Origin: Geosiphon pyriformis uo1
Taxonomy: Eukaryota > Fungi > Glomeromycota
NCBI GenBank assembly: GCA_016748015.1
Contig: JAAOMT010000657.1
Coordinates: 186,001-250,000 of the forward strand
Length of the DNA: 64,000 nt
Direction: 5' to 3'
The notes beneath the pieces were generated by a model, which saw nothing but the letters and a program-made list of their open reading frames with translations, was not told where the DNA came from and searched no databases. Of this stretch, positions 2,106-50,465 are shown piece by piece. The translations under genes were made by a program, and so were the position numbers. How positions within the stretch are numbered: the first letter of the stretch is position 1; every line of letters starts with the position of its first letter.

Positions 2106-3290
2106 AAACTTTTCTTAAGTATTAATAACTTAGTTTTAAAATATTACTTAAACAGAAATAATATTTGTATAAATAAGTTTTTTAATTAATAGAAATAACT
2201 TTTTATAATTTATAAAATTTAAACAATGATTTTTATATTTTACAAGATTAATTTAAAACAATTTTTGATAATCAATTTGTTTACAGTATATAATTTAAAA
2301 AATATTAATTGTAATAATACCAACTTTAAAAATCAACAAAAATTAGTTGTAAATAGATATATTATTTTTAAAATAAAAATATTTTTAATTAACATAAAAA
2401 ATTATTTTCTGAATTAAAAAATTCAAAATGTTTTCTATATTTTTTATAAATATTAAACCAAAAATTATTTAAATATTACTTTAATTATTAAAAAACAAAT
2501 TATTATAATTGATAATAATATAAATACATATTTTTATTATAAATGAAAATTATAATTTTTATTAATTATTATATGTATTAGCCAATAATATTATATAATT
2601 AGTTATTTTATTTTTAAATAATAATTATTAACTTAATTATTAATCTAATTATTGACTTAATTATTAACTTAACTATTAACTTAATTATTAACTTAACTAT
2701 TAACTTAATTATTAACTTAATAATTAACTTAATTATTGACTTAATAATTAATTATTTTAAATAAATATATAAGCAATAAATTTTTTAGTTGTAAAAAAAC
2801 ATATTAAAATCAAAGTAATAAAATAAAAATTACTATTTAATACTTTTTTTTATATTGTTTATTTTTTTTTCTAATTTTTTATTTTTAAGATTTAAATATT
2901 TGTAAATAAAAAATTATTTTTTAATATTTACATATTTTATCTTTTTTTTGATTTATATTGTTAAAATTAATCTAAAAATATTTGTTTGTTTTTGTAATTT
3001 ATTAAATAAAAAAATAATGAAAACATAATAATATTTGTTATTAATTTTAAAAATTGCTAAGTAAAACATAAAATAATAGCACTAATATTATTTTATTAAC
3101 AATTATAAACTATTTTTCTACTTTTAGATTTTTTAAAAATAATTAAATAATTATAATTTTAAGATTAATTATGTATATTAGATTTTTATAAATTTAATTT
3201 ATTTCTTTAATTGATTTTTTTTTGATTATTTCTATTATTTTTAATAGTTTTTTTTTGTTATTTATTAATTTGTTATTTTAATTTATAATA
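2106..3290 (+). mobile_element. Extremely decayed 3' remnant of a family-A LTR element (integrase tail, start of extra ORF, internal deletion, 3' LTR 2535-3290)
   Basis: 2106-2530 aligns by eye to 41280-41725 and 2535-3290 to LTR-A, with most C->T and G->A. It includes about 10 decayed copies (TTAACTTAATTA) of the 12-bp LTR-A repeat. Confidence 0.8.
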
Positions 3291-12515: not shown

Positions 12516-15500
12516 CTAAATACAGTTATTAGTAACATAGTTTTTGTGTATAATATTAGTACAATAAACTATTATATTTTTTTAGTAATAAATACATATT
12601 TTGTTTAATCTATTATAAAAATTAAGAATTCATTAACCTAATACCCAAAAAAAAATAAACTGTTTAAGATTTAATCACTAATAGTAAAACAAAAAAAACC
12701 TTTTCCAAAAGAAAAAAATTTAACATTGAAAATTTGCTGATTAGAAACAGTTCAGTAATATTAAAAAAAAAATATCTCTAAACAAATTTATATAATACAA
12801 CATACTATTACCACCAAAAAAACTTGTTTTATCTATTTAAAGCCTTATTAATTCAATTACCACAATAATGAATTCATCAAAAAAAAATAAACCAAACCAA
12901 GAGCAAATAAGCTTTTTCAGTTGTAGTAATATTTAAAAAAGATGAAATTTTATGCTTTTGTGTTGACTACTGTTAATTAAATATCATTATTAAAAGAAAT
13001 ATATATTTATTTCTTAAAATTAATACAATACTAGATTAATTCAAAAATGCTGTTTTCTTTTCAACTATTAATTTAACTACTGAATTTTGGTAAATAGAAA
13101 TAAATTTAAAAAGTAAAAAAAAAACCATTTTTATTATCAAATATAATACTGTTATAAGTAAACTTGATAAAGTATGGCAGTAATATTTAGTGCTCTAAAT
13201 TTAGATAAGGGAAGCTTGAAGGTTTTTTTTTATAGGCTTATATGATATATTAGTGTTATTAATTTTTAAAAGTTTCTTAATAGATGTAAATTTACTTATA
13301 AAGTTCTTTAGTTATAAAGTACAGAGATATAGTTTTGTGGTATTAAAACTTATATATATGAGCTATTTTTTCCATGTTAGTCAAGTGCAATCACTAAGGT
13401 TTAATGATATTTTTTTGTCTTTTTGATAAGCTAATAAGATAATGTTATTATCTAATCTTAAAAGAAACTTCTTTTTTTTATTAGGCTATCATAAAGTTTA
13501 TTTTCAGACAGTTAATTTTTTTATGTTGTTATTTCACAAAAAAAGAAAAAAAAAGAAAAAAAAGAACAAAAAATAAAATAAAAATAAAAATAAAAAATAA
13601 AATAAAAATAAAAAAAGAAATTAGTATTGTTAATTGTTGTAATTAAAAATAATCAATCTAAGTTGTTATTTATTTAAGATATTTTTATGTTAAGAGCATC
13701 TGACCAGAAATAAAAGTAAGAAAATAAGTAATTTGGTTTAAACATAAAATTCAAAGATTATGAATAAGTAATTTTTGGTTTTAAATGTTTTTTTATTTAA
13801 GTTAATGTAAATATATAGGTAAAATAAACTTAATAAATATAAATAAAAAATATATTTTTTATTTGACTATTTTTTCTGTTTCTCTGTCTTTTTTTTACTG
13901 CTAAAATTATTTGTTTTTATACATATTTCTAGTTTTACAAGATTGCTTGTTATTACTAGTTATTGCTTTATTTTTTTATACTATAATTATTTTATGTTAC
14001 AGTTAATTATTTTGTGTTATTTTATGTTATTGTGTTATTTTATGTTATCTTGAGTTATAATATGTTATTTAGTATTATTTCATATTATTATGTTTTTCTA
14101 TATTATTATATTTCTTAATCACGTTTTTTCAATATTTTTTGGATTTGTTTTTTTATTCAGGTAATATTATCTCTTTTTTTTAAAATTAAGCTTCTATGAA
14201 ATTATATATATCTGTAAAAATTGTTCTTTTAGTATAGTGTTTAATTGTTATATTAAGTATTGTTTTTTGTAAATTTTCAAACTGTGTATTTGTTATTTAT
14301 TCTATGCTGTTGATTGTAATAGTTTTTAATGCATTATCTAATAGTATAACTAAACAGTATTTAAAGGCTGTATACAATCAATAGATTGCTTTATAGTATA
14401 GTATTAAGTTGCTTCTTTCTATGAATTTTTTTACTTGTTTAAGAGCTTTTTTGTTAAAAGTTTATTTGTTGAAGTTTTTATATAGTGTTTTCAATTCTAA
14501 TTGTTCATTAATCTTAAAAAACCAGTAGACTAATGAAAGTTTTTTTTTCTACTCTGACATTTTCTGGTGTTTATTCTCCTATGTTGGATAGTTTAATCTT
14601 CTAGAAAAAATCTCATTGGATTTTTTTTAGTATCAGAAACCACATACTTTTTTTTTTCTTTAATTATTTATAAAAATAGAAATACTCAGCTTTAATTGAA
14701 TTTTTGTTCATCTTTTTCTTGTGCAAATTTTTGTATTGTATATTTTTTTTATTAATTGTAATTTCTATTGGTGTTGTAAATTGTTAAATTGCTTCAAATA
14801 ATTGGTTTAAAAGTTTTAGAATTTGATCTAAAAGATTTATTTTGAAAGTTTTATTGTCTTCTTTCTTGCTGTTTCAGTTTTTATATATACTTAAATTTGC
14901 AATTTAATTTATTACCAATGGACTATGTTTCAATAACAATAATTGGTTCCAAATTTTGTAGTATATCTTCTGATCTGATTAATAAAATTTGTGTTTTTAG
15001 TTGAAGTATAAATAATGATGACTTTTAGTTAATATGATAAATTTTCAGTTAATTTTTATATACTACTTTCTTTAAAATTTTGTTTTCTAATTATAATTTG
15101 TATGTTCTATTGCCTAAAACTTTGTGTATGTAAAATAGTCTATTCTATTTTAGGTTAAACTTTTTACTCTATTGTTTTTCAGCTTTAGTACAATATAACA
15201 ATACTTTGTTTTCAATCTTAAATTCAGCTAATTGGTCAAGTAGGTAATTATTATGTCTCTTTTTTTGTTATTTTTGAGTATTATTAATATTGTCTGCTGT
15301 TGTTTTATGATTGTTTTCTAATGTTTTTATTAGCTGGTATGTTTTCTGGTATAAGATGGCTTCAAAATTCTTTTTGGTAATTGATTTTGTTAAAAAAAAA
15401 GATATTTTTTATTCAATAGGTAGAGTGATTTGTCTCTTATATACTAGTTTAAATAGTATAAACTAACTAGTATTTTGCTTTATTGTTTGATATGCAAATA

Positions 15501-20414: not shown

Positions 20415-20805
20415 TTTACTTGATCCAAACCTGTTAATTTTTTGTACAGTAAAACTTGATTTTTTGTGCATAATAACTGGAATTAATTGCAGTATTTTAC
20501 AAAAAATAAAAAGATAGTTTAAGTAATCTTTTCTTGTAATTCAATTGTATAAAGTTTATTAGAATTATCTTATAATATTATGATAATGTTTTCAGTGTAT
20601 TCAGCATCAATAATTCTTTTTTTTATGTTAATTTTTTTTTTGTAAGACTAAACCAAAAAGCAACTTAAATCATAGTATTAATAAAAATTTTTAAAGCTAT
20701 TTTGAGATTTATTTTTACAAAGAAGTGTGAAACTATAACTATAAAGAATTGTTTGGAATATTTTAAATCAAATTCAGCATTATTTTCATGTGTTTTTTCA
20801 GATAT
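20415..20805 (-). pseudogene. dUTPase domain inside B1 pol (between protease and RT)
   Basis: Reads ..THENNAEFDLKY..INLKIAL..FSLTKKKINIKKRIIDAEYTENI..NRFGSS, i.e. decayed motifs AGFDL, RSS, IDxGYxG, RGxxGFGS. Confidence 0.8.
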
Positions 20806-22627: not shown

Positions 22628-25600
22628 TATTATGGATTGGAGTAACAAGCTAACAGATAGCAAGGGAGAGCAGGATTGTAGAGTAATGGAAATAATAAAA
22701 AGGATTTCAACTTTAATGAGTGAATTAAATAAGTATAGATTCAATGTGCAAGATCAGTCTCATAAAATATCTTAGTCACTATTCTTTTAAAAAATAACTA
22801 GAGAATCTGAAGATAGAGGAATAGTCTGTACTATCAACAAATAATTACGTCTGGTATAATTCTATGCTTCACATCAACACTCTTAGAATTCAATATCAGA
22901 TATCAAATGTACTCTTCAGTTATGTTTTATTCAATAATCTTCAAATGCTGCAATTACATGTTTTTAGAAAAAGAATAAGGAATAACCAACAAGTAATCTT
23001 TTATTCCAAGATGTTCAGATACTTGAAAGTAGGGAAAAGAAATTTAGTAATAAGAAAATAATTAAGATGAAAGTTGTTATTTTATTTATTTTTTTTCTTT
23101 GATTTCTACATGCTTTTCTACAGCTAAGAGATTCATTACTTATATAGCTATCAAAAGTGGTCAATGATCAGGTCAATAATTAGGTCAATAATCAGGTCAA
23201 TGATTATTTTTTAAAAATAGAGTGGCTAATTTATATGATATCAATGGCTAATACATGTGATAATTAATAAGAAGTATAAGTTTCAATCATAATATTATCT
23301 TCTTTAAAGAGATTGAGCTCCAGTGAAATCAAGCTATTTATAATGTAATCTATTTAAAGAGTTTTATTTAACTCAAAGCTAACTAGTTTGTTGAAGTCTT
23401 TTGTATATAGAGTATATAATACTTGAGATGAAATGAGTTTTATATCTAAAAAACCAAATTTTTGTATTAGAGTTTTGGCTTTTCTAACAATAGTTAAAAC
23501 TCTTGGGACATCTAACCATATAATGCCCAAAATTTCTGCCTGTATCTCTGAAGTTGTTTTCTTCATGAGTTTCATATCTTCTATGATTTCTCCAAAGTGA
23601 CCATAGAATTCTAATTGCCTTTCATATGACAAGTTTTTGTTTATGGATAAAATTTCTTAGAGTGTTTTTTCAATTGTGCTGAAAGATAAGAGTATAGCTG
23701 CTATTATACTTTTTAATAGATATTTATCCATTTTGCTACCAATTTTTTCTCTTCCAGTAGTAGTTTTCTTTGGTCTAATAACAGTATGTATTCCACTGTT
23801 ATCAGTTATGGTGGTTTGTTTTCCAATGGTCAGAGTAGTATTTGGATAGTTTTTGATCCAATACTTATGGAGAGTATAGAAGATGTTTTGAATGTTTTGA
23901 TCCAAAAAATAATTGTTCATGTCAATTGAAGATACCTCTGTTTTGGGAATAGTGCATTTATTTATATTTGATTTTTGCTAATTATTTAAGTTGATATTAT
24001 TACAACAGGCAACCAATCAGATCATTTATGATATTTTTTGAGTCATATACTATAAACAGGACAATCATTAAAGATTGTTTCGGATTGATCTTAAAGAATA
24101 TAAGAACTATTGTTCAAAACTTTATTGACTATAAAGAGTTTTTTCTCTTAGCTAAAGAATTCATCACCATAGACATTGTTTCTGTTTGAATGGTATTTTA
24201 GTACCAAGTCACCAACACTTAAAGAAAGTGTTTTATTGATTTTCTTTCTTTTAAGCTTTTTTGGAACTGTTTTATCTTTTCAAAAGCAATTATTCATGCT
24301 TTTACTAAGGAGTCAAGAATGATACCAAGTCTTTTTTGCAAAATGTCTTTGTAATTTCCTATTATGATTTCTTCAAAAGGTATTGTCTCAATGTCAGTTT
24401 CTATTGGTAGTATTGCCATATATTCATAGAGCAGATAAAAAAGTTCATAACTTGTTATGTTATAATTCACAGTTCTATAAGCAAACAAAGCTAAAGGCAG
24501 TACTTTGTCCCATAAGTTTGTTTCTTCACTGGTTTTGGCTAGGATTTCACATAGTGTTCTGTTAAAACGTTTCACTAGGCTATTTGTTTAAAGGTAATAA
24601 GGAGAGGAGAATTTATAATGTATTCTTATTTTTCTACAAAGTTCTTCAACCAGTGTATTGAGAAAAGCTCTTCTTTTATCAGATAAAAGTTCTTTGGAAC
24701 AGTCATGATGGCAAATAATATCTTCATAAATGAAATTGGTTATTAAGACTGCTGTTTGGTCAGGAGTACCTCTTGCTTCTATCCACTTTGTAAGATAATT
24801 GGTAACTGTAATAATATATCTGTTGCCATCAAGAGTTATTGTTAAAAGTCTAATAACATCTATACCAATTCTGTTAAATGGTTGATCAACAGAGATTGAA
24901 TGGATATTTTTTTTGTGATTGGATTTGCCTCTTTTTTGGCAGATGTCACAGGTTTTGATGTATTCACCAATGTTCTTTTCCAAGGTAGACTAATAATAGT
25001 GAGCTAAGGTTTTCTGAATTGTTTTTGTTTTTTTAAAGTGTTCAGCTAATGGGTCAATATATATGTTGTATATTACAATTTTTTTTTTTTCAAATCTGAT
25101 AATTCTCTGGAGACAATCAGAATCTTTTCTATTTCTTTTATATAACTGGTTCTGAGAGATTAAATAGAAATTTGAATGTTTGCACAAATGTTTTTTTTGC
25201 TGTTGAGTGTATTCTGGTGGGTATTGTCCTTTACCCAAAAATTCTATTAAGGCAGAATAATTGTCCAAGTTCATTATTATGTTTGTTTGTAAAAGAGTTA
25301 CTAATAATTAAGTTGGTTTGATTTGAGAGGTTGTACTATTACTGAATGATAAGTCTAAAAAGAGTGTCTGCATTTGATGATTTGCTTCTTTATAGTGTTA
25401 AATATTATAGTCAAATTTATCCAAATGGAGTATTCAGTAAGTTATTCATTTATGTTCCAGCTTCTTTTTATTGTGCAGCCAAACCAAGGCTTGATGATCT
25501 GTTATCACTAAGAATTTTGCACCAAAAAAATATTGATCTCAGTAACTAGTAGCCCAAACTACTGCTAAGCATTTCTGTTTAGTAACTGAATAATTCTTTT

Positions 25601-32710: not shown

Positions 32711-34267
32711 ATGGGTGATTACTCATATCTGCCACAGCAATCAGAAAAACACTTTGCAGCACATAACAGAAACGACCTAAATTTCATTGAACTTAATCCT
32801 CTGCCCTCCTGCTTAATCTGCTTCCCCCTTGAAAAACAATCCAGTAGACAATTCTAAGACTTTTGGAACTGGTTCCTGAACAAACATTCAGCTAAAACCT
32901 ACACAGCTTATACAACCTATTACTTTGACCAAGCTTATTTTGAAAACAACTTTGAAGAAAGAAACAACAGTATCAATCAGCTCTTATATTCTGCAACCTT
33001 TGAACAACAGCCCTCTGATTTCGAATATCTGAATCATCAAATCCATATTTGGATTGCTGCCCATCAAACAACTAAAACTCCTTTTGAAACAAAAGAAGAA
33101 AGCTACCAAACTGCTCCTGTTTTTGACCTTTTATCAAGCAAATCAGACTCGTCTACACAAACAGTTACCCCTGAACCAATGGCTAATGACTCCATGCAAG
33201 CAAACATTCTGGCCACTCTCCAAGATATACAAACTGCTCTAGGAAGAAGAAACAATACCCCACTATCACTATTTAGAGGTAATGCACAAGATCCAATTGA
33301 ATAGTTAGATGATTTTGAGAGAACTGTTACAGCCAACCAGTATGATGAAAAATACAAATTCCAAATTGTTGGTGGCTACCTCCAAGGCTCTTCTGCTATC
33401 TGGTTCTCACAAGAAACAGATGCCAATGCTTAACACAGAATAATCAGATGGACACTAATTAATGCTGGAGAAGAAAATACCTCTTTCACTACCTGATTTG
33501 AGGCCAAATTCAGAACCCCAATATTAATATTCAAATGGCACATGGAATTGGAAAGAAGAACCCAAGGCCCTGGAGAAGTAGTGACTGAATATGCCAAAGC
33601 TATTAGAAAGCTAATCAAATGTATAGACTCTGGGAGAAACTGGACAGAAAAACAAAAGATTCATTCCTTTACAAAAAGATTAAGAACCAATTTATCTTAT
33701 GCTCTTTGGCCTCTTTTGGTCCTAAAAGACAACCCTACAATGGACATGGCCATTGAACTTGCCCAACAAATTGAAGACAACCAAAGAATACATTTGGGAT
33801 TTACACTTCCAGTTTTTGCTCCTACTCCTGTCATGGCTCCTGCCTCTCAAATAGCTGCTGCTTCTTTTGCTGCCCAAACTCAAGATCCAAATGAACAATT
33901 AATTGATAGACTCACAGCCAATCTTGCATGGTTATTAGAACCTTTGGCACAAGCAGTCAAAGATAACCAACAACCACCAAGACCTAGATACAAACCTCGT
34001 TTTAACCAGCCCCAGCAACCTCCCTATCAAAGACAGCAAAATTGTGGTCCACCTGTGTGCTATTATTGTGGATTAACTGGACATTATTCAAGAGATTGTA
34101 ACAATTCTCCACTGCCTCCTCTAGCTCCCAGAAACAATGACAACCAAAACAACAGACCCAACAACAACAACAATGTCCTCAATCAAAGACCCAATCATGC
34201 CAACATCAATTTCTTTGGAGAGGATTCTCTAGTTGAAGCCACTGTTTATCAGCCTTTAAACTGGTAG
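32711..34267 (+). pseudogene. gag: A2 gag (capsid-like + CCHC zinc knuckle), with stops
   Basis: FRG.AQDPIE.LDDFER (retrotransposon gag N-domain), QGPGEVVTEYA (MHR-like), CYYCGLTGHYSRDC. Confidence 0.9.
34255..34261 (+). other. -1 ribosomal frameshift slippery site T_TTA_AAC (also 37473-37479 and minus 28025-28031)
   Basis: Correct phase in gag (CCT TTA AAC TGG TAG). The -1 frame is open into pol, 96 nt before the first pol Met in all three copies. A GC-rich hairpin-forming tract follows. Confidence 0.75.
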
Positions 34268-35885
34268 CCGCACCTCCAAAGGGTGAGAGTGCAAACCAAC
34301 CAGAAAAAAACCCCTTTTTTGCTTTTAACTTAACTGATGATGACTATGACATGAATGAACTAGCAATTAACACCTCAGAACCAACCAGAAAGAAGAAGAA
34401 AGCCAAGATTGATTTCGTTCTAGACTCCAACAAAGCCTCAACTTCTGCTGCTGATAACAATGAGCCACCAAAGGCTAAAGTCTTTAAGAATCCCCCAAAG
34501 TTGGAACCCCCAGAAATTGTACAAAAATCTGAACCCTATTCCATTGTCAAAAATCTCATGAAAACCTCAGCACATATTACCTTTGGCCAGTTAATGACCC
34601 ACCCACAGTTCAGAAAGAATCTTCACAAATCTTTGATCCCAAAGAAGAAGACACCAAAAACCAACAAGCACCTTCGCCAAGCTGGACTTGCTGACAACAG
34701 CAATGTCACCCTTTTGATTTGTAAAGCCCAAGTGGCTGAATACTTCATTGACTTAATTCTGAACAGTGGATCATCTGTTAGTGTCATTGCCAAACACTTC
34801 TTGGAAGCAATTGGTAGAAAGATTGATGAACCTTCCACCAGACTAATGACCAATGTACATGGTGACAAAAAGAAAAGATTGGGTATTGCCAAAGCTGTTC
34901 CTGTCCGCATTAATGGAATCAACATTGAAACTGATATGGAAGTTTCTGAAGCCAAGGAATACATCATTATTGTTGGCAATAAATGGCTCAAGAAAGCAAA
35001 AGCTTTGCTTGATTATGAACTTTGTGAATTAACCATCAGATGTGGTGAGAAACCCATTGTGGTTAAGTGTTGCCATTGAACAACTCCCCCAGTACCCAAA
35101 CAAAACCAAAAAGAAAAACAATCAGATAAATCAGATGATGAAAAAAGTGATGAAGAAGAAAAACAAGAAGAACAAGAAGAAACTGCTGAACTTGCCTATA
35201 CCACCTTCACCAACAATGACAAACTACTGGACAATGTTAAAGCAGACAAAGAAGAAATCATTGTAAATGGCAAGCTAATCTGCTGGTCTTATTTATTACA
35301 TGTATTAGCCACTGATGTCATATAATTAGCCACCCTATTTTTAGATAGTGATCATTGACCACTTTAGATAGCTATATAAGCAATGATTCCCTTAGCTGTA
35401 GAAAGACATGATCAAAGTAACGAAATAAACAATATCAATTACTTCCTTTCATAATTGCTTATTCCCCTTTCCTTACCTTCAAGTATCTACTTGTTGGCAT
35501 TCACATACCTTATCTTTTCCCCTTTTTGATTTGTATTTGTTAGAATTAGTCTGAGAAGCAATTGGCTTGCTCTTGTAATTTATTGAATAAAGAAACAACT
35601 GAAAAGTACAATGATACCTGTTATTGATTCTAAGAATTGCCGAGTTGAGGCATAGAATAATAGCAGCAGTGTTATCTTGTTGACAATCACGGACTATTCC
35701 TCTACCTTCAGATTTAAGAAAAGATTAGCAACTGTGATTTTTATGAGACTGATCATGCACATTGAATTCTTACTTATTCAATTCACTCCCTTATTGTAAT
35801 TTTTTCTTTGTTTATTTCCATCACCATACAATACTGTTCTCCCTTGCTATCCATTAGCTTGTTATTCCAACCCATAACATAAAAG

Positions 35886-35902
35886 TGGTGCTCCCTGTAA
35901 GG
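35886..35902 (+). other. Primer-binding site, consensus TGGTGCTCCCTGTGAGG (also 32665, 31022, 59865, 62456; minus 29618, 57188)
   Basis: Starts with TGG (TGA in two decayed copies) just downstream of each 5' LTR and is conserved across the three families. Confidence 0.85.
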
Positions 35903-35931
35903 TTGTCAAAATTCACTTATTCCCTCATTGT

Positions 35932-37485
35932 ATGGGTGATTACTTATATCTGCCACAGCAATCAGAAGAATACTTTGTAGCACACAATAGAAATGACCAA
36001 AGTTTCATTGAACTTAATCCTCTGCCCTCCTGCTTGATCTGCTTCCCCCTTGAAAAACAATCAAGTAGACAATTCCAAGACTTTTGGAACTGGTTCCTGA
36101 ATGAGCATTCAGCTGAAACCTACACAGCTTATACAACCTATTACTTTGACCAAGCTTATTTTGAAAATGACTTTGAAGAAAGAAACAACAGTATCAATTA
36201 GCTCTTATATTCTGCAACCTTTGAACAACAGCCCCCTGATTTCGAATATCTGAATTATCAAATCCACATTTGGATTGCTGCCCATCAAGCAACTGAAACT
36301 CCCTTTGAAACAGAAGAAGAAAGCTACCAAACTGCCCCTGTTTTTGATCTTTTATCAAGTAAATCAGACTTGTCTACACAAACAGTTACTCCTGAACCAA
36401 TGGTTAATGACCCCATGCAAGCAAACATTCTGGCCACCCTTCAAGATATACAAACTGCTCTAGAGCAAAAAAACAACACCCCAATACTATTATTTAGAGG
36501 TGATGCACAAGATCCAATTGAATGGTTGGATGACTTTAAAAGAGCCACTACAGCCAATCAATATGATGATGAGTACAAGTTCCAAATTGTTGGTGGCTGC
36601 CTTCAAGGATCCCCTGCTACCTGGTTCTTACAAGAAACAGATACCAATGCCCAGCAAAGAATCATTAGATGGACACCAGCAAATGTGGGAGAAATCAACA
36701 CTTCTTTCACTACCTGGTTTGAAAACAAGTTCAGAATCCCAATATTAATATCAAAATGGCATATGGAATTGGAAAGAAGAACCCAAGATCCCAGTGAAGT
36801 TGTAACCAAATACGCCAAAGCAATCAAAAAGTTAATCAAATGAGTAGACACTGGAAGAAATTAGACAGAAGAGCAGAAAATTCACTTTTTCACAAAAGGA
36901 TTGAGAACTGATCTATCGTATGCTCTTTGGCCCCTTCTGGCCCTGAAAGATAATCCCACCATGGATATAGCCATTGAATTAGCACAAAGAATTGAAGACA
37001 ACCAAAGGATGCACTTGAGATCCACACTACCAGTTTTTGCATCTGTTCCTGTCATGGCTCCTGCCCTTCAAATGGCTGCTACTTCTTTTGCCACTCATAC
37101 TCAAAATCCAAATGAACAGTTAATAGACAGACTCACAGCAAATCTTGCTTGGTTATTAGAACCCTTAGCCCAAGCAGTCAGAGAAAATCAGCAACCACAA
37201 AGACCCAGATTTGAACCACGCTTCAATCAGCTCCAGCAACCACCTTATTAAAGACAACAAAATTGTGGCCCACCTGTATGCTATTGCTGTGGATTAACTG
37301 GACATTTTTCAAGAGATTGCAACAATCCTCCACTGCCTCCACCAGTCTCCAGAAACAATGATGCTCAGAACAACAGGATTAACAACAACAATATGCCCAA
37401 CCAAAGACCCAATCATGCCAACATCAATTTCTTTGAAGAAGATTCCCTAGTTGAAGCCACTGTTTATCAGCTTTTAAACTGGTAG
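35932..37485 (+). pseudogene. gag: A3 gag, with stops
   Basis: Same frame through track ORFs 35932, 36370 and 36901; CYCCGLTGHFSRDC knuckle. Confidence 0.9.
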
Positions 37486-40169
37486 GCGCACCTCCAAAGG
37501 GTGAAAGTGCAAGCCAACCAGAAGAAAACCCCTTTTACACTTTTAACTTAACTGATGATGACCATGACATGGATGAATTAGCAATCAACCCCTCTGAATC
37601 TACAAGAAAGAAGAAGAAAGCCAAAGTTGATTTTGTTCTAGACCCCAATAAAGCTTCTATATCAACTGCTGACAACAATGAGCCCCCAAAAGCCAAAGTT
37701 TTCAAGAACCCTCCAAAGTTGAAACTCCCAGAAATAGTACAAAAATCTGGTCCCTATTCTGTTGTCAAAGACCTTATGAAAACCCCAGTACATATAACCT
37801 TTGGCCAATTGATGACCCATCCACAATTCAGAAAAAATCTTCGCAAATCTCTGATTCCAAAGAAAAAGACACTCAAAACCAACAAATGCCTTTGCCAAGC
37901 TGGACTTGCTGACAATAGCAATGTCACTCCTCTAATTTGTAAAACCCAAGTGGCTGGCTACTTCATCGATTTGATCCTAAACAGTGGATCATTTGTTAGT
38001 GTTATTGCCAAACACTTTCTTGAAGCAATTGGCAGAAAAATTGATGAATCATCCACATGACCAATGACCAATGTGCATAGTGATAAGAAAAAAGGGCTTG
38101 GCATAGCCAAAGCTATTCCTGTCTGCATCAATGGCATCAGCATTAAAACTGATATGGAAGTGTCTGAAGCAAAAGAATACACCATCATTGTTGGCAATGA
38201 ATGGCTCAAGAAAGCAAAGGCTTTGCTTGATTATGAACTCTGTGAACTAACCATTAGATGTGGTGAGAAACCCATTGTGGTTAAGTGTCACCATTGGACA
38301 ACTCCCCCAGTACCCAAGCAGAGTCCAGAAGAAAATGAATCAGATGAATCAGATGATGAAAAAAGTGAGGAAGAAGAAGAACAAGAAGAACAAGAAGAAC
38401 AAAAAAAAACTGCTGAACTCACCTATACCATCTTCACTAGCAATGGCAAACCACTGGATAATGTCAAGGCAGATAAAAAAGGAATCATTGTTAATGGCAA
38501 GCTAATCTACTGGCCTTATTATGACATGCTCAGAAGAACCTTTGACAAAAAGCCAGGCAAAAAAGCCAAATACAGTTATTGGTGGCATGGTCTTTGTGCC
38601 TGGTGCTGGTGCGACAAACCATTGTATTCTTCTAGTGATGAATGCATGTCCTGCCTGATCTATTACAAAGATTGGGAACCAATCAGCTTGATACCCCGAG
38701 AGGAAATAAAAGAAGTCCAAAAGTCCTTTGAAAATGAACCACCTGAAATCCAATTACTGGTTGTAGAACAAAAAAAACTCTCTCCAGAAGAAAGAAAAGT
38801 AAACATTGAAAACCTGCTGGCTAGAAACAATCCAGTTATCTCAAAAGAAGGTGAACCTCCTGGACGTACACATGTGATACAACACACCATCATTACCAGA
38901 GAAACTCACCCCATTTATTTGAAGCCCTATCAATCCAACAGGTGCAATGATGAGTTTATAAAAAAGGAAATAACCTGAATGAAAACCCTTGAATTCATAC
39001 AGAAAACCAAGAGTGAATGGGCATTCCCAGTTGTAGTGGTATCCAAGAAAGAAGGAACCCTACACTTTTGTGTTGACTATCGCCAATTAAATGCCATTAC
39101 TGAAAGAGACATGTACCCACTTCCTAAGATTGATGCAATGCTAGACCAATTCCATGTTTTCTTCTCAATCATTGACTTAACTGCTGGATTCTGGCAAGTA
39201 AAGATGGATCCAGAAAGCAGAAAAAAAACTGCTTTCATCACCAAGTATGGTACCTACGAATTCACAGTTATGCCTTTTGGTCTCACAAATACTCCTCTCA
39301 CATTTCAATGCTTAATGGACAAAGTATTTGAATCAGTAAAAAAAAACTTTGTTCTAGTCTACTTGGACGACATAATGGTATACTCAAAAACCTGAGATGA
39401 ACACCTTGAACATTTGCAAAAGGTTTTTGACCTCCTTAGAAATGCTGGTCTCAAGATCAATCCAATCAAATCATTCTTTGGATGTCAATCCACTCAGTTC
39501 CTTGGCCATCTTATTACAAAAGATGGAATCTTCCCTGATCCAGCCAAAATTGAAAAAGTTCAAAACATTAGACAACCAATGAATGTTCATGAACTACACT
39601 TTTTTCTTGGTTTGGCCTCTTATTATTGCAAGTTTGTCAAGAATTTCTCCAAAATCGCTGCTCCTCTCAATCAGCTACTTAGAAAAAACATCAATTATTA
39701 CTGGGGCACTCATCAACAAAAAGCATTTGAAATTCTGAAGGAAAAACTGGTTACAGAACCCATTCTCATGCAACCTAATTTGGATCAACCTTTTATCCTC
39801 CACACTGATGCATCTGGCTATGGACTTGGTGCTGTTTTTTCTCAAAAAGATGAAGATAACAGAAAACACGCTGTAGCATATGCCAGTAGAACTTTCACAC
39901 CAGCAGAAAGGAACTACTCAGTTACTGAGCAGGAATGTTTAGCAGTAGTTTGGACTACTAGCTACTGGGACAAATATCTTAAGGGTGTGAAATTTTTGGT
40001 GGTAACAGATCACTAAGCTTTGGTTTGGCTACGCAACAAAAGAAACCTAGAACATAAATGGATAACTCGCTGAATACTCCACTTGGATGAATTCGACTAT
40101 GACATTCAACACCGCAAAGGAGCTAATCATCAAAATGCTGACACTCTCTCCAGACTTATCATCCAGTGA
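37473..40169 (+). pseudogene. pol: A3 pol (protease, Cys-rich insert, reverse transcriptase, RNase H) in the -1 frame relative to gag; ends before integrase
   Basis: LILNSGS (DSG), FCVDYRQLN, MPFGL, VYLDD, LHTDASGYGLGA, EQECLAVVW, VTDH, ADTLSRLIIQ*. Confidence 0.92.
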
Positions 40170-40234
40170 TAGTAAAACCCTCTCAAACTAAACCAACTTA
40201 ATTATTTGTAACTCCCTCACAAACAAACACGATA

Positions 40235-41548
40235 ATAGACTTGGACAACTACTCTGCTTTAATGAAATTTTTGGGTAAAAGACAATACCCACCAGACTAT
40301 AATTGACAGCAAAGAGAACATTTGTGCAAACAATCAAATTTCTATTTGATTCGCCAGAACCAGTTATATAAAAGAAATAGAAAAGATCCTGACTGCCTCC
40401 AGAGAGTTATTAGATTTGAAGAAAGAGAAATTGTGATCTACAATATGCACACTGATCCATTAGCTGAACACTTTGGAAAAACAAAAACAATTCAGAAAAC
40501 TTTAGCTTGCTATTATTGGCCTACTTTGGAAAAAGACATTGCTAAATACATCAAAACCTGTGATACCTGCCAAAGAAGAGGAAAACCCAATCGCAAGAAA
40601 GATATCCATTCAATCTCTATTAGTCAACTATTTGATAGAATTGGTATAGATGTTGTTGGATCTTTAACAGTAACTCCTGATGGCAACAGATACATTATCA
40701 CAGCTACCGACTATCTTACAAAGTGGGTAGAAACAAGAGCCACTCCAGATCAAACAGCAGTCTCAATTGCCAATTTCATTTATGAAGATATTATCTGTCA
40801 CCACAGCTGCCCCAAAGAACTTTTATCTAATAGAGGAAGAGCTTTTCTCAGTACACTGGTTGAAGAACTTTGCAGAAAAATGGGAATACGTCATAAACTC
40901 TTTTTCTCTTATCACCCCCAAACAAATGGCCTAGTGGAATGTTTCAATAGAACACTATGTGAAACCCTAGCCAAAACCAGTGAAGAAACCAACCTATGGG
41001 ACAAAGTATTGCCTTCAGCCTTGTTTGCTTACAGAACTGTGAATTATAACATAACAAGTTATGAACCCTTTTATCTGCTCTATGGATGAATGGCAACTCT
41101 ATCAATAGAAATGGATATAGAAACAATACCTTTTGAAGAAATAACAATAGGAGATTACAAGGATATTTTGCAAAAAAGACTTGGTACCATTCTTAACTTA
41201 TTAGTAGAAGCACGGATAATTGCCTTTGAAAAGATAAAACAGGTCCAAGAGAAGCTCAAAAAGAAAAAGACCTATAAAACACTTTCCTTAAGTGTTGGTG
41301 ACTTAGTTTTGGAATACTGTTCAGACAAAGACAATGTCTATGGTAATAAATTCTCTAGCCGGTGGAAAAGACCCTTTATAGTCAACAAAGTTTTGAACAA
41401 TGGTTCTTATATCTTACAAGATCAATATGGAACAATATTCAGTAATTGCCCTGTTCATGGCATGCAACTCAAGAAATATCACAAACAACCTGATTGGTTA
41501 CCTGTTGTAGTAATACTGACCCAAATGATCAGCAAAAATTAGATATAA
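40235..41548 (+). pseudogene. A3 integrase, separate ORF (start codon mutated to ATA)
   Basis: HTDPLAEH...CDTC, IGIDVVG, NGLVE; begins 65 nt after the RNase H stop, in a different frame. Confidence 0.88.
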
Positions 41549-41589
41549 ATAAATGCACTATTCCCAAAACAGAGGTATCTTCAATCAAC

Positions 41590-42246
41590 ATGAACAATTA
41601 TTTCCTGGATCAAAACATTCAAAATGCTTTCTATACTCTCCATGAGTACTGGATCAAGAACTATCCAAATACTACTCTGACTATCGGAAAACAAACCACT
41701 ATAACAGACAACAGTGGAACTTACACTGTTATTAGACCAAAGAAAACAACTACCAAAAGAAAAAGAATTGGTGGCAAAATGGATAAATATCTGCTGGAAA
41801 GCATAACAGCAGTGATACTTTCATCTTCCAGCACAATTGGAAAAACAATACAAGAAATCTTGCCCATAGACAAAAACTTGTCATATGGAAGACAACTAGA
41901 ACTCTATGGTTGTCTTGGTGAAATCATAGAAGACATGAAGCTTATGAAGAAAACAACTTCAGAGATACAAGTGGAAATTTTGGGCATTATACGATTGGAT
42001 GTCCCAAGAGTTTTGACCATTGCAAGAAGAGCCAGAACTCTTATACAAAGATTTGGTTTCTTGGATACAAAGCTTATTTTGTTTCAAGTACTATATACTC
42101 TATTCACAAAAGACTTCAACAAACTAGTTAGTTTTGAGTTAGACAAAACCCTTCACATAGACTATCCCATAAATAGTTTGATTTCGCCGGAGCTTAATCT
42201 CTTTGGAGAGAATGATGTTATGGTTGAAACACATAGTTTTTATTAA
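41590..42246 (+). CDS. A3 extra ORF of unknown function (218 aa), overlapping the PPT and the first 31 nt of the 3' LTR
   Basis: Stop-free, MNNYFLDQNIQN...VMVETHSFY; conserved in A1 and A2. Confidence 0.75.
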   Translation: MNNYFLDQNIQNAFYTLHEYWIKNYPNTTLTIGKQTTITDNSGTYTVIRPKKTTTKRKRIGGKMDKYLLESITAVILSSSSTIGKTIQEILPIDKNLSYGRQLELYGCLGEIIEDMKLMKKTTSEIQVEILGIIRLDVPRVLTIARRARTLIQRFGFLDTKLILFQVLYTLFTKDFNKLVSFELDKTLHIDYPINSLISPELNLFGENDVMVETHSFY

Positions 42247-42308
42247 TTATCACATGTATTAGCCACTGATGTCATATAATTAGCCACTCTATTTTTAGAT
42301 AGTGATTG

Positions 42309-42424
42309 TTGACCTGATCAATGACCTGACCATTGACTTGATCATTGACCTGATCATTGATCTGATCATTGACCTGATTATTGACCTGATCATTGACCTG
42401 ATCATTGACCTGATTGTTGACCAC
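42309..42424 (+). repeat. 12-bp tandem repeat TTGACCTGATCA in LTR-A U3 (9 full copies here)
   Basis: Directly visible; present in the LTR-A copies in variable number. Confidence 0.92.
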
Positions 42425-44660
42425 TTTAGATAGCTATATAAGTAATGATTCCCTTAGCTGTAGAAAGACATGATTAAAGTAATGAAATAAACAATATCAA
42501 TTACTTCCTCTCATAATTGCTTATTCCCCTTTCCTTATCTTCAAGTATCTACTTGTTGGCATTCACATACCTTATCTTTTCCCCTTCTTGATTTGTATTT
42601 GTTAGAATTAGCCTGAGAAGCAATTGACTTGCTCTTGTAATTCATTGAATAAAGAAACAATTGAAAAGTACAATGATACCTGTTATTGATTCTAAGAATT
42701 GCCGAGTTGAGGCATAGAATAATAGTAGCAGTGTTATCTTGTTGACAATTACGGACTATTTCTCTACCTTCAGATTTGAGAAAAGATTAGTGACTGTGAT
42801 TTTTATGAAACTGATCACACACATTGAATTCCTACTTATTCAATTTGCTCTCTTATTGTAATTCCTTCTTTGTTTATTTCCATCACCATACAATACTGTT
42901 CTCCTTTGCTATCCGTTAGCTTGTTACTCCAACCCGTAACAATATTCTTAGAAAAACCTTTGAAAGAAAACCTGGCAAGAAAGCCAAATACAGTTTTTGG
43001 TGGCATGGTCCTTGTACCTGGTGTTGGTGCAACAAACCCTTGTATTCTCCAAGCAATGAATGCAAATCATGCCTGATCTATTACAGAAATTGGGAACCAA
43101 TCAGTTTGATACCCAGAGAAAAATTAAAAGAAGTACAGAAGTCCTTTGAGAATGAACCACCTGAGATCTAATCACTGGTTGTAGAACAAAAAGAACTCTC
43201 CCCAGAAGAAAGAAAAATAAACATTGAAAATTTGCTGGCTAGAAATAGCCCAGTTATCTCTAAAGAAGATGATACCCCTGGACATACCCATGTAATACAA
43301 CACACCATCATCACCAGAGAAACTTGACTCATCCATTTGAAACCTTATCAATCCAATCAGCACAATAATGAGTTTATCAAGAAAGAGATAAACCAGATGA
43401 AAAAACTTGGATTCATACAAGAAACCAAGAGTGAATGGGCTTTCCCAGTTGTAGTGATATCCAAGAAAGGTGGAACACTATGCTTCTGTGTTGACTATCA
43501 CCAATTAAATGCCATCACTAAAAGAGATATGTACCCACTTCCCAAGATTAATGCAATATTAAACCAATTCAAAGATACTGCTTTCTTTTCAACTATTGAC
43601 TTAACTGCTGGATTCTGGCAAGTAGAGATGGATCCAAAAAGCAGAAAGAAAACTGCTTTCATCACCAAGTATGGCATCTATGAATTCACAGTTATGTTTT
43701 TTGGTCTCACCAATGCCCCTTCCACCTTTTAATGTTTAATAGATAAAGTATTTGAATCAGTCAAGGAAAACTTTGTTCTAGTTTATTTGGATAACATAAT
43801 GGTATACTCAAAAACCTGGGATGAACACCTGAAACATTTGCAAAAGGTTTTTGACCTCCTTAGAAATGCTGGTCTCAAGATCAACCCAATCAAATCTTTC
43901 TTTGGAAGACAATCCACCAAGTTCCTTGGTCATCTTATTACAAAAGATAGAATCTTTCCTGACCCAGCCAAAGTTGAAAAAGTCCAAAACATCAAACAAC
44001 CAATAAACATTCATGAACTATGCTCTTTTCTTGGTTTGGCCTCTTATTATTGCAAATTTGTCAAGGATTTCTCCAAAATCGCCTCTCCTTTCAATCAGCT
44101 ACTCAGGAAAAATGTCAATTACTATTGGGGAACACATCAGCAAAAAGCCTTTGAAACTTTAAAGAAAAAACTGGTTACAGAACCCATCCTCAAGCAATCT
44201 GATCTAGATCAACCCTTTATCCTCCACACTAATGCATCTGGCTTTGGACTTGGTGCTGTTCTCTCCCAGAAAGATGAAGATGGCAAAGAACATGCCATAG
44301 CCTATGCCAGTAGAACTTTTTCCCCAACAGAACAGAACTATTTAGTCACTGAACAAGAATGCTTAGCAGTAGTATGATCTACCAGTTACTGGAACAAGTA
44401 TCTTCTTGGTGTGAAGTTTTTGGTGGTAACAGATCACCAAGCTTTGGTTTGGCTGCACAACAAAAAGAGACTAGAACACAAATGGATAACTTGCTGAATA
44501 CTCCACTTGGATAAATTCAACTATGATATTCAACATTACAAAGGAGCTAATCATTAAAATGCCGACGCTTTCTCCAGACTTACCATCTAGTAACAGAACA
44601 ATCTTCTCAAACCAAACCAACTTAATTATTAGTAATTCCCCCTTTTTGACAAACATGATA

Positions 44661-45974
44661 ATGGACTTAGACAACTACTCTGTCTTAATAGAATTTTTGG
44701 GTAAAGGACAATATCCACTGAAATACACATGACAACAAAGAGAACATTTGTGCAAACAATCAAATTTCTATTTGATTTGCCAGAACCAACTTTATAAAAG
44801 AAATAGAAAAGATCTTGACCACCCCCAGAAAGTCATCAAATTTGAAAAAAGAGAAATTGTGATCTACAATATGCACACTGATCTATTAGCTGGACACTTT
44901 GGAAAAACAAAAACAATTCAGAAAACTATAGCTTACTATTATTGGCTTACCTTGGGAAAAGACATTGCTAAATACATCAAAACCTGTGATATCTGCCAAA
45001 GAAGAGGAAAACCCAATTGCAAAGAAGATATTCATCCAATCTTTGTTGGTCAACTCTTTGACAGAATTGGTATAAATGTTGTTGGATCTTTAACAATAAC
45101 TCCTGATGGCAACAGATACATTATCACAGCTACCAACTATCTTACAAAGTGGGTAAAAGCAAGAGCCATTTCAGACCAAACAGCAGTTTCAATAGCCAAT
45201 TTCATTTATGAAGATATCATTTGTTGCCATGGCTGCCCCAAAAAACTTTTATCTGACAGAGGAAGAGCTTTTCTCAGTACACTTGTTGAAGAACTTTGCA
45301 GAAAAATGGGAATACATCACAAACTTTTCTCTCCTTATTACCCCCAAACAAATGGCTTAGTAGAACGTTTCAATAGAACATTATGTGAAACTCTAGCCAA
45401 AACCAGCAAAGAAACAAACTTATGGGACAAAATACTGCCTTCAGCTTTGTTTGCTTATAGAACTGTGAATCATGACATAACAAGTTATGAACCCTTTTAT
45501 CTACTCTATGAACAAATGGCAACCCTACTAATAGAAACTGACATTAAGACAATACCTTTTGAAGAAATAACAATAGAGAATTACAAAGACATTTTGCAAA
45601 GAAGACTTGGTACCATTCTTGACTTATTAATAGAAGCACAGATAATTGCCTTTGAAAAGATAAAACAATTTCAAGAGAAGCTTAAAAAAAAGAAAACATA
45701 TAAAACACTTTCCTTAAGTGTTGGTGACTTAGTTTTAGAATACCATTCAGACAGAGACAATGTCTATAGTAATAAATTCTCTAGCCAATGGAAAGAACCC
45801 TTTATAGTCAACAAAGTTTTGAACAATGGTTTTTATATCTTACAAGATCAATATGGAACAATCTTCAATGATCACCCTGTTCATGGCACATGACTCAAGA
45901 AATATCACAAACGACCTGATTGGTTACTTGTTATGGTAATACCAACCCAAAAAATCAACAAAAATCAGATATAA
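44661..45974 (+). pseudogene. A2 integrase, separate ORF (HHCC, DDE, GPF-like tail; no chromodomain)
   Basis: ATG at 44661, 67 nt after the RNase H stop. HTDLLAGH...CDIC, IGINVVG (D->N), LLSDRG, NGLVERFN, WKEPF. Confidence 0.88.
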
Positions 45975-46015
45975 ATAAATGCACCATTCCCAAAACAGAG
46001 GTATTTTCGATTGAC

Positions 46016-46672
46016 ATGAACAATTATTTTTTAGATCAAAACATTCAAAACACTTTCTACACTCTCCATGAGTACTGGATCAAAAATTATCCAAATGCTA
46101 CTCTGACCATTGGAAAACAAACCACCATAACTGATAACAGTGGAACACATACTGTTATTAGACCAAAGAAAACCACTACCAGAAGAGAAAGAATTAGTAG
46201 CAAAATGGATAAGTATTTACTAGAAAGCATAATAGCAGCAATACTTACACCTTTCATGACAATTGGAAAAACAATTAAAGAAATCTTGCCCATAGACAAA
46301 AACTTGTCATATGGAAGGCAATTAGAACTCTATGGTCGTTTTGGTGAAATTATAGAAGAAATGAAGCTCATGAAGAAAACAACTTCAGAAATACAAGTGG
46401 AAATTTTGGGCATTATACGTTTAGATGTTCCAAGAGTTTTGACCATTGCAAAAAGAGCCAAAACTCTTATACAAAGATTTGGTCTCTTGGATACAAAGCT
46501 TATTTTGCCTCAAGTACTATATATTCTATTCACAAAAAACTTCAATAAACTAGTTAGTTTTGAGTTAGACAAAACTCTTCAATTAGAATACCCTATAAAT
46601 AGCTTGATTTCGCTGGAGCTTAATCTCTTTGGAGAGGATGATATTACAGTTGAAACCCATAATTTTTATTAG
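46016..46672 (+). CDS. A2 extra ORF of unknown function (218 aa), stop inside the 3' LTR
   Basis: Open from ATG 46016; homologous to 41590-42246 and ~23264-23920 (minus). Confidence 0.75.
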   Translation: MNNYFLDQNIQNTFYTLHEYWIKNYPNATLTIGKQTTITDNSGTHTVIRPKKTTTRRERISSKMDKYLLESIIAAILTPFMTIGKTIKEILPIDKNLSYGRQLELYGRFGEIIEEMKLMKKTTSEIQVEILGIIRLDVPRVLTIAKRAKTLIQRFGLLDTKLILPQVLYILFTKNFNKLVSFELDKTLQLEYPINSLISLELNLFGEDDITVETHNFY

Positions 46673-49600
46673 TTATCACATATATTAGTCACTAATGTCA
46701 TATAATTAGCCACTCTATTTTTAGATAGTAATCATTGACCTAGTCATTGATCTGGTCATTGACCATTTTCAATAGATATATAAGCAATAAGTCTCTTAGC
46801 TGTAGAAAATCATCTCTCAGACAAGAATCAAATAAATAAAAATAACAACTTTCATCTCAATTACTTTCTTATTGCTAATTTTTCTTTCCCTACTTTCAAG
46901 TATCTGAACATCTTAGGATAAAAGATTACTTGTTGGTCTTTTCCTGACATATATAATTGTAGCATTTACAGATTATTTGAATAAACATAACTGAAAAGCA
47001 CAAGTTGATACCTGATATTGAATTCTAAGAGCGCCGACATGAGACATAGAATTATATTAGTGGTGATCAATTGTTGACAGTACGGACTATCTCTCTACTT
47101 TCAGATTCCCCAGTTACCTTTAAAAAAAATAGTGACTGAGATATTTTATGAGACTGATCTCGCACATTGAATTCATACTCATTCAATTCGCTTTTTAAAG
47201 TTGAATTTTCCTTTGATTATTTCCATCACCTTACAATCCTGTTTTCTCTTGCTATCCATTAGCTTGTTACTCCAATTCATAATACTACTAACAACTGAGA
47301 CAATACCAGAGTTCTATAAATTATTTTCTATTTCTTAAAAAATATCACCAATTTATGGTATTAGAGTTTGATTCAGAAACCCCAAAACTTTAATGCATTT
47401 AAACTGGAATTTTTTAGATATTTTAGTAATAACAATAGTATTAATCAATTGACAACTGTCTTTACTACTATTAAGTAAAAAAACATTGAAGCAGTTATTA
47501 CTTACTTGAAATGCTTTTACAAAATACTGCATCAAATTCAAGCTATTGACACTAACTATTTTACAGCACCACAAATCCTAAATTAGTTTATCTGTGGTTT
47601 ACACAGTAGCATTTTTCAGCAAATATGCCCATTACATCTACAAACACTCTAAAATACAGTCACACATACCAGAGATTTTGAATTGGTTAAGCTGGAAGCC
47701 AATCATGCTCAAACCATTAATCTAATAATAAGTAGATTATCTGATTTGAATTCCAAGTTAAAACAATTTAGTGATTCTATCAACCAAAAATTAGAGGGAT
47801 ACTTAACTAATAATTAGACAATATATCAACTTTTACAATGTTGTGACAATTCAGGAAACTTTAATCAATCTCAAAGTCAGTCACATTTTTTATTCTCATC
47901 AACCAATTAACAGTAGTAACAAGAGATGCATAGTTGCCACTATTGTAGTAAACAAAAACATTTGCAAATCAATTGTCACACATGATTAAACAATCAATGA
48001 TCGGAAAATCAATATTAAAACCCCAATTGCCAATTTCAAACTTTGAATTATCAATCAAATCAAGACCAATATCAGCCTTAATACACTCCAATAATACAAT
48101 AGGCAATATACTCACTGCTTATTTATTAGACTTCAGTATTAGTAATATATTAACTATAGTTACAGATCATTTATTAAATCCTACTATTTCAAACACCACC
48201 ACAAAACTCAGTTTAAATAACATCTGAAAATCAAAGACTGAAAATTACTTATATCCAACAAAACTAAAAATTAGCAATAGTAATATATCAACCAATTTTC
48301 AGTTTATTAAACCAGTCCTTAAGATTATGTCAGTGAAGTTTGAGAACTGAGTACATCCAAAACCCGAATTTCTAAAACTATTTAAGTCTTTTAATTATCC
48401 CAGAAAACAAATTATCCAATGATTTAGAACCCAACTAATAAGCACTTACTAACAATATTCTACTAGCAACCATCACAAAAAATAAATTACTTACTGCAAT
48501 ATTCTCTTTTAAAATAGAAATCCAAGCCAAAACACTATTTTTTAATAAAGCTGCTCTTAATGCTAAATCAATTATTATCATATATACTAATGCTAAAGTT
48601 AACAGTCATTATATTAAACTAATTCTTAATAGTGGTTTAGCAAGCAACATTATTACATAACAATTTATGGACTAATTAGGTTGCCAAGTTGATTGCACTG
48701 TCAGTGCCAGGATTATTACTGCCAATAAAGTGATAAAAACATTTATTGGTAAGATAGATGACTTTTTATTTGAGATCAATGACATTATGACACTAATCAA
48801 AGTGTTGATCATAGAAGCCACACAATACTAAGTGCTAATTGGTAATAACTGGCTGTCCAAAACCAATACTTTACTTAACTGAAATACCCAAAAGTTATAG
48901 CTCAGTTAAGATGTTTTGTAAATTCAAATATCTACTACTTATGGCCACTTTAAGTCAATCATTATTAATTGAATTAGAAGAAGAAAAGTAGAAATTTACT
49001 TGAGAAGCATATTAGATATTATGAGCCAAAAAAGATCATAATAAGCTATCACCAATCTTATTTTAGAACAACAAAGGAAAAAAAAAGGGAGATAAATCAC
49101 AAGCCACTACTGACTCTAATAAAGCCAACAATAGTTGGCATACACCATACTCAATAAACATTAAGAAAAAACCATCTTATATTCTTTTTAAGTGTATCAA
49201 CTACAAGAAAAAGCTTTCATTTATGAGAGCTTAGATAATATCAAACAAGGACTACTGAACACATACCTATTATTGTTGTAAATTGTGCTACCAAGAATGT
49301 TTTGGTTATCCAAAATAACAAAAAAAATAGAACAATAAACTTTGTCTTACTTACAGAAAAATACTACTCAATAAAAAAATGTAAAACAACATTTTTGGTT
49401 AAAAAAAAACATGCAATACATTATGTCAATACACAATTCTTATTAGTGACTGGGTAAGCCGAGGAACATTTTTTAATGCTGCATGGAACTGAGCATTTTC
49501 ATGCTTAAATGGCTATCCACATAATAAAAACAAAATTTAGTAAATAACAAGTGCCAAAGTTAAAAATGCTTTGCTCAGTAAAATATTGGCAATCAAAAAC

Positions 49601-50071
49601 AATCTATCAAAACCAGTTAAGACCATTCTTATTTCCAATTCAGACACATTTTTTGATATTCTAAGCAATCCAAAACAATTCCACAAACACTACCAAGACT
49701 TAACACCCACTAGAAAAAAGCAAGAGCAGCATTTGGAACAGTTAAATACAAGCCTTTGTAAATACTGCCTAATTTCCAGTAACTTTGAATATTGTGATAA
49801 ATGTGATTTTATTTATAATCTACCATCATATATGATCTATTCAATTTCTAAAGAAGAAAAACCAATCAGCAAATGTGCAATGGAATTGGAATTAAAATTT
49901 AATTCCAATTCAGACTTCGACAATTACAACAATAACAGTTCTAATTTTGTTTATTATGGCAATGACAATAATAATTCAAACTCTAATTACAATTCCAAAC
50001 AATATATTACACTTTCAAATTTAACAATAAAACAAGAACTAAAATGGTTTAGCAATAATAATGAAGGTATT

Positions 50072-50465
50072 ATGTCAGAATGTGCACATAATACTAATGC
50101 AGAATTTAATCTCAAATATTTAGAAAAAACTGCCATCAAATTGGAATCTTATTTGTGTATCAGTATAGATCTGAAAATAGCATTGGAAATTTCAGCAACA
50201 ACAATAATCCAATTAGCTTTTAGATTTAGTTTAGTGAAAAAAGAAATCAATATTAGAAGAGAAATAATTAATGTAAGATATATAGAAAATATCATTGCAA
50301 TATTACAAAATGATTCAAAAAAAAAATATACTATTGAACCAAATAAAAAGAAAGCACAAGCAATATTTCTGTCTTTGGTTAAAATAGCTCAGTTAGTTTC
50401 AGTAGAAAAAAAGGAAGAATTAGGGATTACAGCAAGAAAAATAAAAAGATTTGAATCTATAAATA
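50072..50465 (+). pseudogene. dUTPase domain inside C1 pol
   Basis: MSECAHNTNAEFNLKY...IDLKIALEI...QLAFRFSLVKKEINIRREIINVRYIENI...KAQAIF...TARKIKRFES: all five dUTPase motifs, decayed by G->A/C->T. Confidence 0.85.

Follow-up and report, generated by a model that had tools for sequence, protein, structure and literature searches.

Third open reading frames (ORFs) of long terminal repeat (LTR) retrotransposons are known and mostly unexplained, and those in sense orientation are usually filed as env-like. Sense additional ORFs (aORFs) located between pol and the 3' LTR constitute a known class, aORF-3S, and the nuclear examples, Grande GENE23 and PvRetro13, are antisense (PMC7264820, excerpt). 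The gene described here, ORF3, belongs to a Ty3/gypsy family, family A, found in a 64-kb stretch of the Geosiphon pyriformis genome (hereafter the window, i.e., the whole stretch of DNA analysed), where decayed LTR retrotransposons are stacked together; LTR sequence makes up 41.2% of this genome (PMC11952901, excerpt). ORF3 resembles the aORF-3S genes in where it lies and how it is oriented, in being present in most family copies, and in being conserved like the core genes, but the sense genes reviewed resemble env, and some of them have transmembrane segments and spliced RNAs (PMC7264820, excerpt), whereas ORF3 appears to code for a soluble protein with a basic helical domain and overlaps the polypurine tract (PPT) and the LTR. 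It defines an unnamed soluble protein family, old and under selection, with many copies in Geosiphon, and apparently undescribed, within a known class of accessory gene. The explanation favoured here, tentatively and at clearly less than even odds, is that one Ty3/gypsy lineage carries ORF3 as an accessory gene encoded on its own and maintained by selection, whose product is a putative DNA binder regulating the element's own transcription.

Position and sequence features of ORF3

Four copies of ORF3 are found in the window, three of them in the elements A2, A3, and A1:

41590..42246, + strand: ORF3 of A2, 218 amino acids (aa), open
46016..46672, + strand: ORF3 of A3, 218 aa, open, 86% identity to the A2 copy
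23264..23920, - strand: ORF3 of A1, 2 in-frame stops, 79% identity to the A2 copy
about 2394..2490, + strand: N-terminal fragment of ORF3 from a fourth A copy, heavily decayed and internally deleted (E 1e-8)
42205..42215, + strand: PPT of A2, translated G-E-N-D within ORF3
42216..42941, + strand: 3' LTR of A2 (TGTTA...TAACA)

The first base of the A2 3' LTR is 42216, where TGTTAT follows the purines, and therefore ORF3 crosses the PPT and ends, stop included, 31 nucleotides (nt) within the LTR. The original prediction, made from the letters of the window, had described exactly this arrangement, with the frame open in A2 and A3 and interrupted by stops in A1, and it was borne out in each of these points; the fourth copy was absent from its list. 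With the A3 ORF3 as a query, 130 proteins were matched at E<=0.001 (382 candidates). Among the 120 matches listed, 119 are labelled hypothetical protein of Geosiphon pyriformis and the remaining one is the query; at least 20 are exactly 218 aa long, with a pairwise identity of 78-93%, and at least 65 share the ORF3 N-terminus. ORF3 has no match in Pfam at E<=0.1 and no usable one in PHROGs, NCBIfam, PDB sequences, or, searched by features, the ESM Atlas.

The maximal Kyte-Doolittle hydropathy in 19-residue windows is 0.33-1.37 across seven sequences, which shows ORF3 to be, by this measure, a soluble protein without membrane segments. An env-like or small membrane protein serving cell-to-cell spread would agree with the position and orientation, which are those of env (PMC7264820, excerpt); it is largely refuted and stands hardly any chance, since a hydrophobic segment is missing from 7/7 sequences, the N-terminus is not hydrophobic (9-residue maximum below 1.0 in four sequences), and Cys residues number 0-1 in the four sequences counted. 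A chromodomain has no Pfam match in the integrase ends or in ORF3, in the window copies and in the metagenome contig L001 described below. Hydropathy and Pfam thus agree with the earlier observation that ORF3 has no signal peptide, long hydrophobic segment, or chromodomain.

Selection on ORF3

The ratio of nonsynonymous to synonymous substitution rates (dN/dS) was calculated pairwise among the A copies for the 208 codons upstream of the LTR. At 0.22, 0.16, and 0.23, it does not exceed that of integrase (0.30-0.47) and is similar to that of gag (0.14-0.28), while in the A2 versus A3 comparison the other sense frames of the region gave 0.72 and 1.22, and the antisense frames 0.89, 0.40, and 1.52. 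Because the decay is biased to transitions, a trinucleotide-matched randomisation was used, with each difference relocated at random among sites with the same trinucleotide (3000 draws); in all six tests the observed synonymous count was reached in only 0-8/3000 draws. These values show that ORF3 behaves as a real gene under purifying selection.

The family A copies in the window are dead, A2 carrying three stops in gag, five in pol, and one in the counted part of integrase. The openness of ORF3 in A2 and A3 proves little, because few stop-prone codons exist there: 9-10 are left in the two open frames, as compared with 9 stops versus 110 stop-prone codons left in the other genes of A2. Domestication of ORF3 by the host was rejected, the open frames being unremarkable and the 24 deeply invariant columns showing no better preservation than the other columns across 20 Geosiphon copies (conservation of 0.906 and 0.904, respectively). 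As the window copies are dead and there is no sign of domestication, selection acted on their ancestors, while the elements were still mobile.

Distant relatives of ORF3

When 1.84 billion representatives were searched by sequence, 29 matches to ORF3 were obtained, five of them distant environmental proteins of 27-35% identity, and a profile built on the distant relatives found 12 proteins among 3475 candidates. Another of the 29 matches, P0137 (E 1.8e-4), was discarded as a repeat artefact. Four distant relatives are full length (196-206 aa), with a mutual identity of 42-53% and 24-34% identity to A3; they have a common start Met and an acidic end motif matching the PPT-LTR junction. No named proteins outside Geosiphon were among the matches of the sequence and profile searches, and no relative was present in viral contigs (0/11 and 0/77 candidate stretches). 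A metagenome contig with an ORF3 relative, L001, was recovered from one of 58 candidate stretches. It comprises an integrase end, a spacer of 47 nt, an ORF open over 197 codons, a purine tract, and TGTTAC, and has lost little CpG (observed/expected 0.77). These relatives support the conservation of ORF3 well beyond the Geosiphon genome, as an old family.

The position of ORF3, fixed behind a stand-alone integrase without a chromodomain, and its two-part build with a DNA-binding-like half would suit an integrase partner, acting in packaging or as a chromatin tether replacing the chromodomain. Such a role is rather unlikely, as ORF3 evolves faster than the C-terminus of integrase (25% versus 51-54% identity between L001 and family A, the former value to the A3 ORF3) and the ORFs in the same position in families B and C could not be linked to it (see below).

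Predicted structure and charge of ORF3

41857..42132, + strand: basic five-helix C-terminal domain of ORF3, about residues 90-181, the predicted nucleic-acid-binding part

The C-terminal domain was modelled on the L001 homologue with alignment A7 (predicted local distance difference test score, pLDDT, 86.8); the model of full-length ORF3 is too poor to use, fold searches with it gave nothing significant, and the N-terminal half is modelled unreliably. Fold matches of the C-terminal domain lean weakly towards DNA-binding domains, the fullest structural overlaps being with the helix-turn-helix DNA-binding domain of ParB/SopB/KorB/Spo0J (75-86 of 103 residues aligned). The ParB N-terminal/CTPase domain has no Pfam match in ORF3, whose N-terminal half is poorly modelled. 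The whole protein P0143 gave a best template modelling (TM) score of 0.48 in the ESM Atlas (134 residues aligned), to a part of ascomycete SET-domain proteins that has no name; this is below the bar.

The C-terminal domain is basic in all homologues, and whole environmental proteins are mostly acidic, with an isoelectric point (pI) of 5.3-6.0 in four of the five tested and 6.9, i.e., neutral, in the fifth. The basic character ascribed to ORF3 at the outset thus applies to this domain; an accessory protein that is helical and basic in its C-terminal half and kept by selection is supported. From fold and charge we infer that ORF3 may bind nucleic acids.

Gene layout and expression signals of family A

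37473..37530, + strand: gag-pol junction of A2, a TTTAAAC slippery-type heptamer before the gag stop, then a hairpin
40130-40340, 44554-44766, 25170-25380: RNase H-integrase junctions, stand-alone integrase of family A
40234..41548, + strand: integrase ORF of A2, with its own start, separate from reverse transcriptase (RT)-RNase H
41544..41549, + strand: TATAAA enclosing the integrase stop of A2, candidate internal promoter
42309..42422, + strand: 12-bp tandem array in U3 of A2, unit TTGACCTGATCA, 9.5 copies, candidate binding sites

The heptamer with its hairpin is present in all three A copies (also at 34255 and, on the - strand, 28031), the hairpin z scores being -2.7 and -2.1, which suggests putative -1 frameshifting, an established mechanism, from gag into pol. 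The integrase ATG lies some 65-75 nt past the RNase H stop, and the frame of the spacer varies among the three copies. The spacer holds a conserved CTTAATTATTAG, which we take to resemble the consensus of a fungal branch point and acceptor.

A basic helical domain shared by all homologues would also befit an RNA-binding helper that, in the manner of HIV Rev or CERV of Cer1, assists the genomic RNA in its export, packaging, or translation. Such a helper would be needed because the element splits integrase from pol, a four-cistron layout with a stand-alone integrase requiring unusual RNA handling, and CERV is a precedent of such a factor from an LTR retrotransposon (PMC10309623, excerpt). ORF3 matches no known RNA-binding family, however, and its fold matches lean, if weakly, to DNA-binding domains, so this role is considered unlikely.

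The integrase stop of the family is the TAA at 41546-41548, since the earlier TAG of A2 is CAG/CAA in A3 and A1. The TATAAA on it is found also in A3 (45970), A1 (23966), and L001 (438), with a chance of 0.035 and 0.014 per 45 nt. In family A and in L001 an out-of-frame ATG follows within 5-7 nt, and reinitiating ribosomes would therefore be diverted. L001 has no AG between this ATG and the ORF3 start, which disfavours a splice acceptor there. Transcription beginning at the usual spacing, about 25-30 nt past the TATA box, would bypass the upstream ATG. Judging by these two lineages, ORF3 may be expressed from an internal promoter. A likeness of TGACC/TGATCA just before the A2 TATAAA to the U3 unit was dropped, not being kept in A3. 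The integrase-ORF3 spacer gave no RNA structure (z 1.2 and -0.2).

In A2, A3, and L001 the -1 frame, which is that of ORF3, runs without a stop past the end of integrase, and one database gene model (P0022) joins both genes, as if ORF3 were no separate protein but the end of a fusion with integrase, produced through -1 frameshifting or splicing. This is quite improbable: the start Met is invariant in all homologues reaching it and the preceding residues are unconserved, no slippery heptamer is shared before the integrase stop, and in L001 the acceptor dinucleotide is missing, as described above, downstream of the upstream ATG.

If ORF3 is a regulator of transcription, a short RNA would start from the internal promoter, past the out-of-frame ATG, with a leader of about 15-25 nt, and end in the 3' LTR. 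The protein would enter the nucleus and bind the U3 tandem repeats, perhaps also the internal promoter, and its acidic parts might recruit host transcription factors, like Tas of foamy viruses. The array occurs in other A-family LTRs in 2.8 to 10.8 copies; LTRs of families B and C have tandem arrays of other units. The layout points to regulation of the element's own transcription more than to integration targeting, integrase packaging, or anti-silencing, the roles first proposed.

Post-integrase ORFs of families B and C

14165..14845, - strand: remnant of an ORF behind the integrase of family B (B1), homologous to C1
53730..54400, + strand: remnant of an ORF behind the integrase of family C (C1), frameshifted

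Decayed ORFs in the position of ORF3 had been noticed in B1 and C1; they do exist and are homologous to each other (32% identity over 98 aa, E 1.5e-10 within the window, and 46% over 39 aa in a second, N-terminal block). The two-block ORF, at 14165-14845 (-), 11977-12412 (-), and 53730-54400 (+), shows codon-position bias, with transversions of 16/4/18 by codon position (P 0.011), and is preceded by GTATATAAAA. TATAAA occurs shortly past the integrase end in both families (chance 0.13-0.14, the motif being common at 21% GC). These ORFs cross the PPT in another frame than that of A.

The relation to A drawn by eye, a motif RA..L ... T...L.KL....F..L, survived no score. BLASTP gave nothing above background, the best profile match was C1 at E 2.2, hhalign gave a probability of 0.1%, and three decay-aware home-made scores were at background: for C1, 7 and 12 of 100 shuffles came as high, and the values of B1, B2, and the pooled blocks fell on the null mean. 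Moreover, the C1 sequence quoted for it joins two frames, and KLSKRTIYL lies outside the frame matching B1. The accessory protein proposed as lineage-wide is thus selected, conserved, and helical in family A, but no test supports its being shared by A, B, and C. B1 has no database relative among 14 candidates, no intact B/C copy being found there, and the copies are strongly decayed, at 21% GC. The B/C ORF may represent another ORF3 family without a name, or else be related to that of A very distantly. Upstream of the C1 RT lies a dUTPase-like ORF (49571-50536, Pfam E 1.8e-6), with a decayed relative at 20495-21135 (-).

The family A elements and other features of the window

35293..42941, + strand: element A2, nested inside the protease-RT region of A3
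about 31992-47284, + strand: element A3, 4-bp duplication CTAC at 31988-31991/47285-47288
30327-22628, - strand: element A1, 4-bp duplication ATAG at 30331-30328/22627-22624
35886, 32665, 29618 (-): primer-binding site, starts TGGTGCTCCC, about 5-6 nt past the LTR end

Family A has the Ty3/gypsy order of gag with a zinc knuckle, protease, RT, RNase H, and integrase (Pfam) between LTRs, together with the primer-binding site, PPT, and target duplication, and the solved structure nearest to its integrase is Ty3-G Gag-Pol. The primer-binding site TGGTGCTCCC presumably resembles the 3' end of elongator tRNA-Met. The LTR pairs are 91-94% identical. The A2 5' LTR (from 35293) is shorter than the 3' one by ca. 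30 bases at its start, and A2 shows no evident target duplication; the duplications of A3 and A1 both have a central TA, which could be a decayed CG.

The observed/expected CpG ratio is 0.14 in the element versus 1.02 in the neighbouring host gene, and of 36 CpG cytosines, 23 show a C/T difference between A2 and A3. A loss this strong shows what was in all likelihood heavy host methylation pressure. This would favour an anti-silencing protein, binding the element's DNA and blocking or removing cytosine methylation, and a DNA-binding domain would fit it. This role is improbable: there is no direct sign of it, and D40 and E104, the only invariant residues apart from the C-terminal tail, do not form a catalytic-type set.

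Part of a host gene for a flavin-containing monooxygenase, of normal CpG content (5696-6172, -), lies amid decayed elements. Long frames at 162-2042 (-) and 18522-19814 (+) belong to another repeat type with a weak match to the RNA-recognition motif (RRM; E 0.026), possibly like ORF1 of long interspersed nuclear elements. Nothing in the window matched Rfam.

Comparison with known accessory genes

No description of an ORF3 protein or of a fungal gypsy transactivator was found in the open-access literature, including the excerpts of PMC3248453 and PMC6338049, subscription papers, Repbase, and GyDB not being covered. The ORF3s of bdelloid rotifers are likewise non-env third ORFs of Ty3/gypsy-like elements; they differ in that the rotifer genes are env or code for a GDSL esterase or DEDDy exonuclease, and none matched ORF3 of family A (PMC5408684, excerpt), which has neither a family profile match to a GDSL/DEDDy enzyme nor, among its invariant columns, the catalytic residues of one. 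CERV of Cer1 is, similarly, an accessory nuclear protein of an LTR retrotransposon without a retroviral counterpart, but it has 517 aa, is spliced from gag exons, and contains a G-like domain and a cysteine loop (PMC10309623, excerpt), none of which is found in ORF3.

As a model of how ORF3 might work, the closest is Tas/Bel-1 of foamy viruses, an accessory gene by the 3' LTR with an internal promoter, whose product has a DNA-binding and an activation part and acts on the LTR and the internal promoter (PMC4929722, excerpt). Tas differs in being a retrovirus protein, and promoter, binding, and activation are in ORF3 all conjectural; no sequence or fold link between the two was found, no direct test having been made. 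The function of ORF3 is directly testable, since an intact relative, a confidently modelled domain, and a candidate promoter and binding sites are at hand. It is conceivable, though doubtful, that family A is a fungal Ty3/gypsy lineage with a complex-retrovirus-like plan, comprising a frameshifted gag-pol, stand-alone integrase, putative ParB-type helix-turn-helix transactivator, internal promoter, and tandem sites in the LTR. If a transactivator is indeed encoded, a trait of complex retroviruses would have arisen separately in a fungal retrotransposon. Such an LTR element would itself encode the switch of its transcription, and this might have helped to drive the spread of LTRs in Geosiphon.
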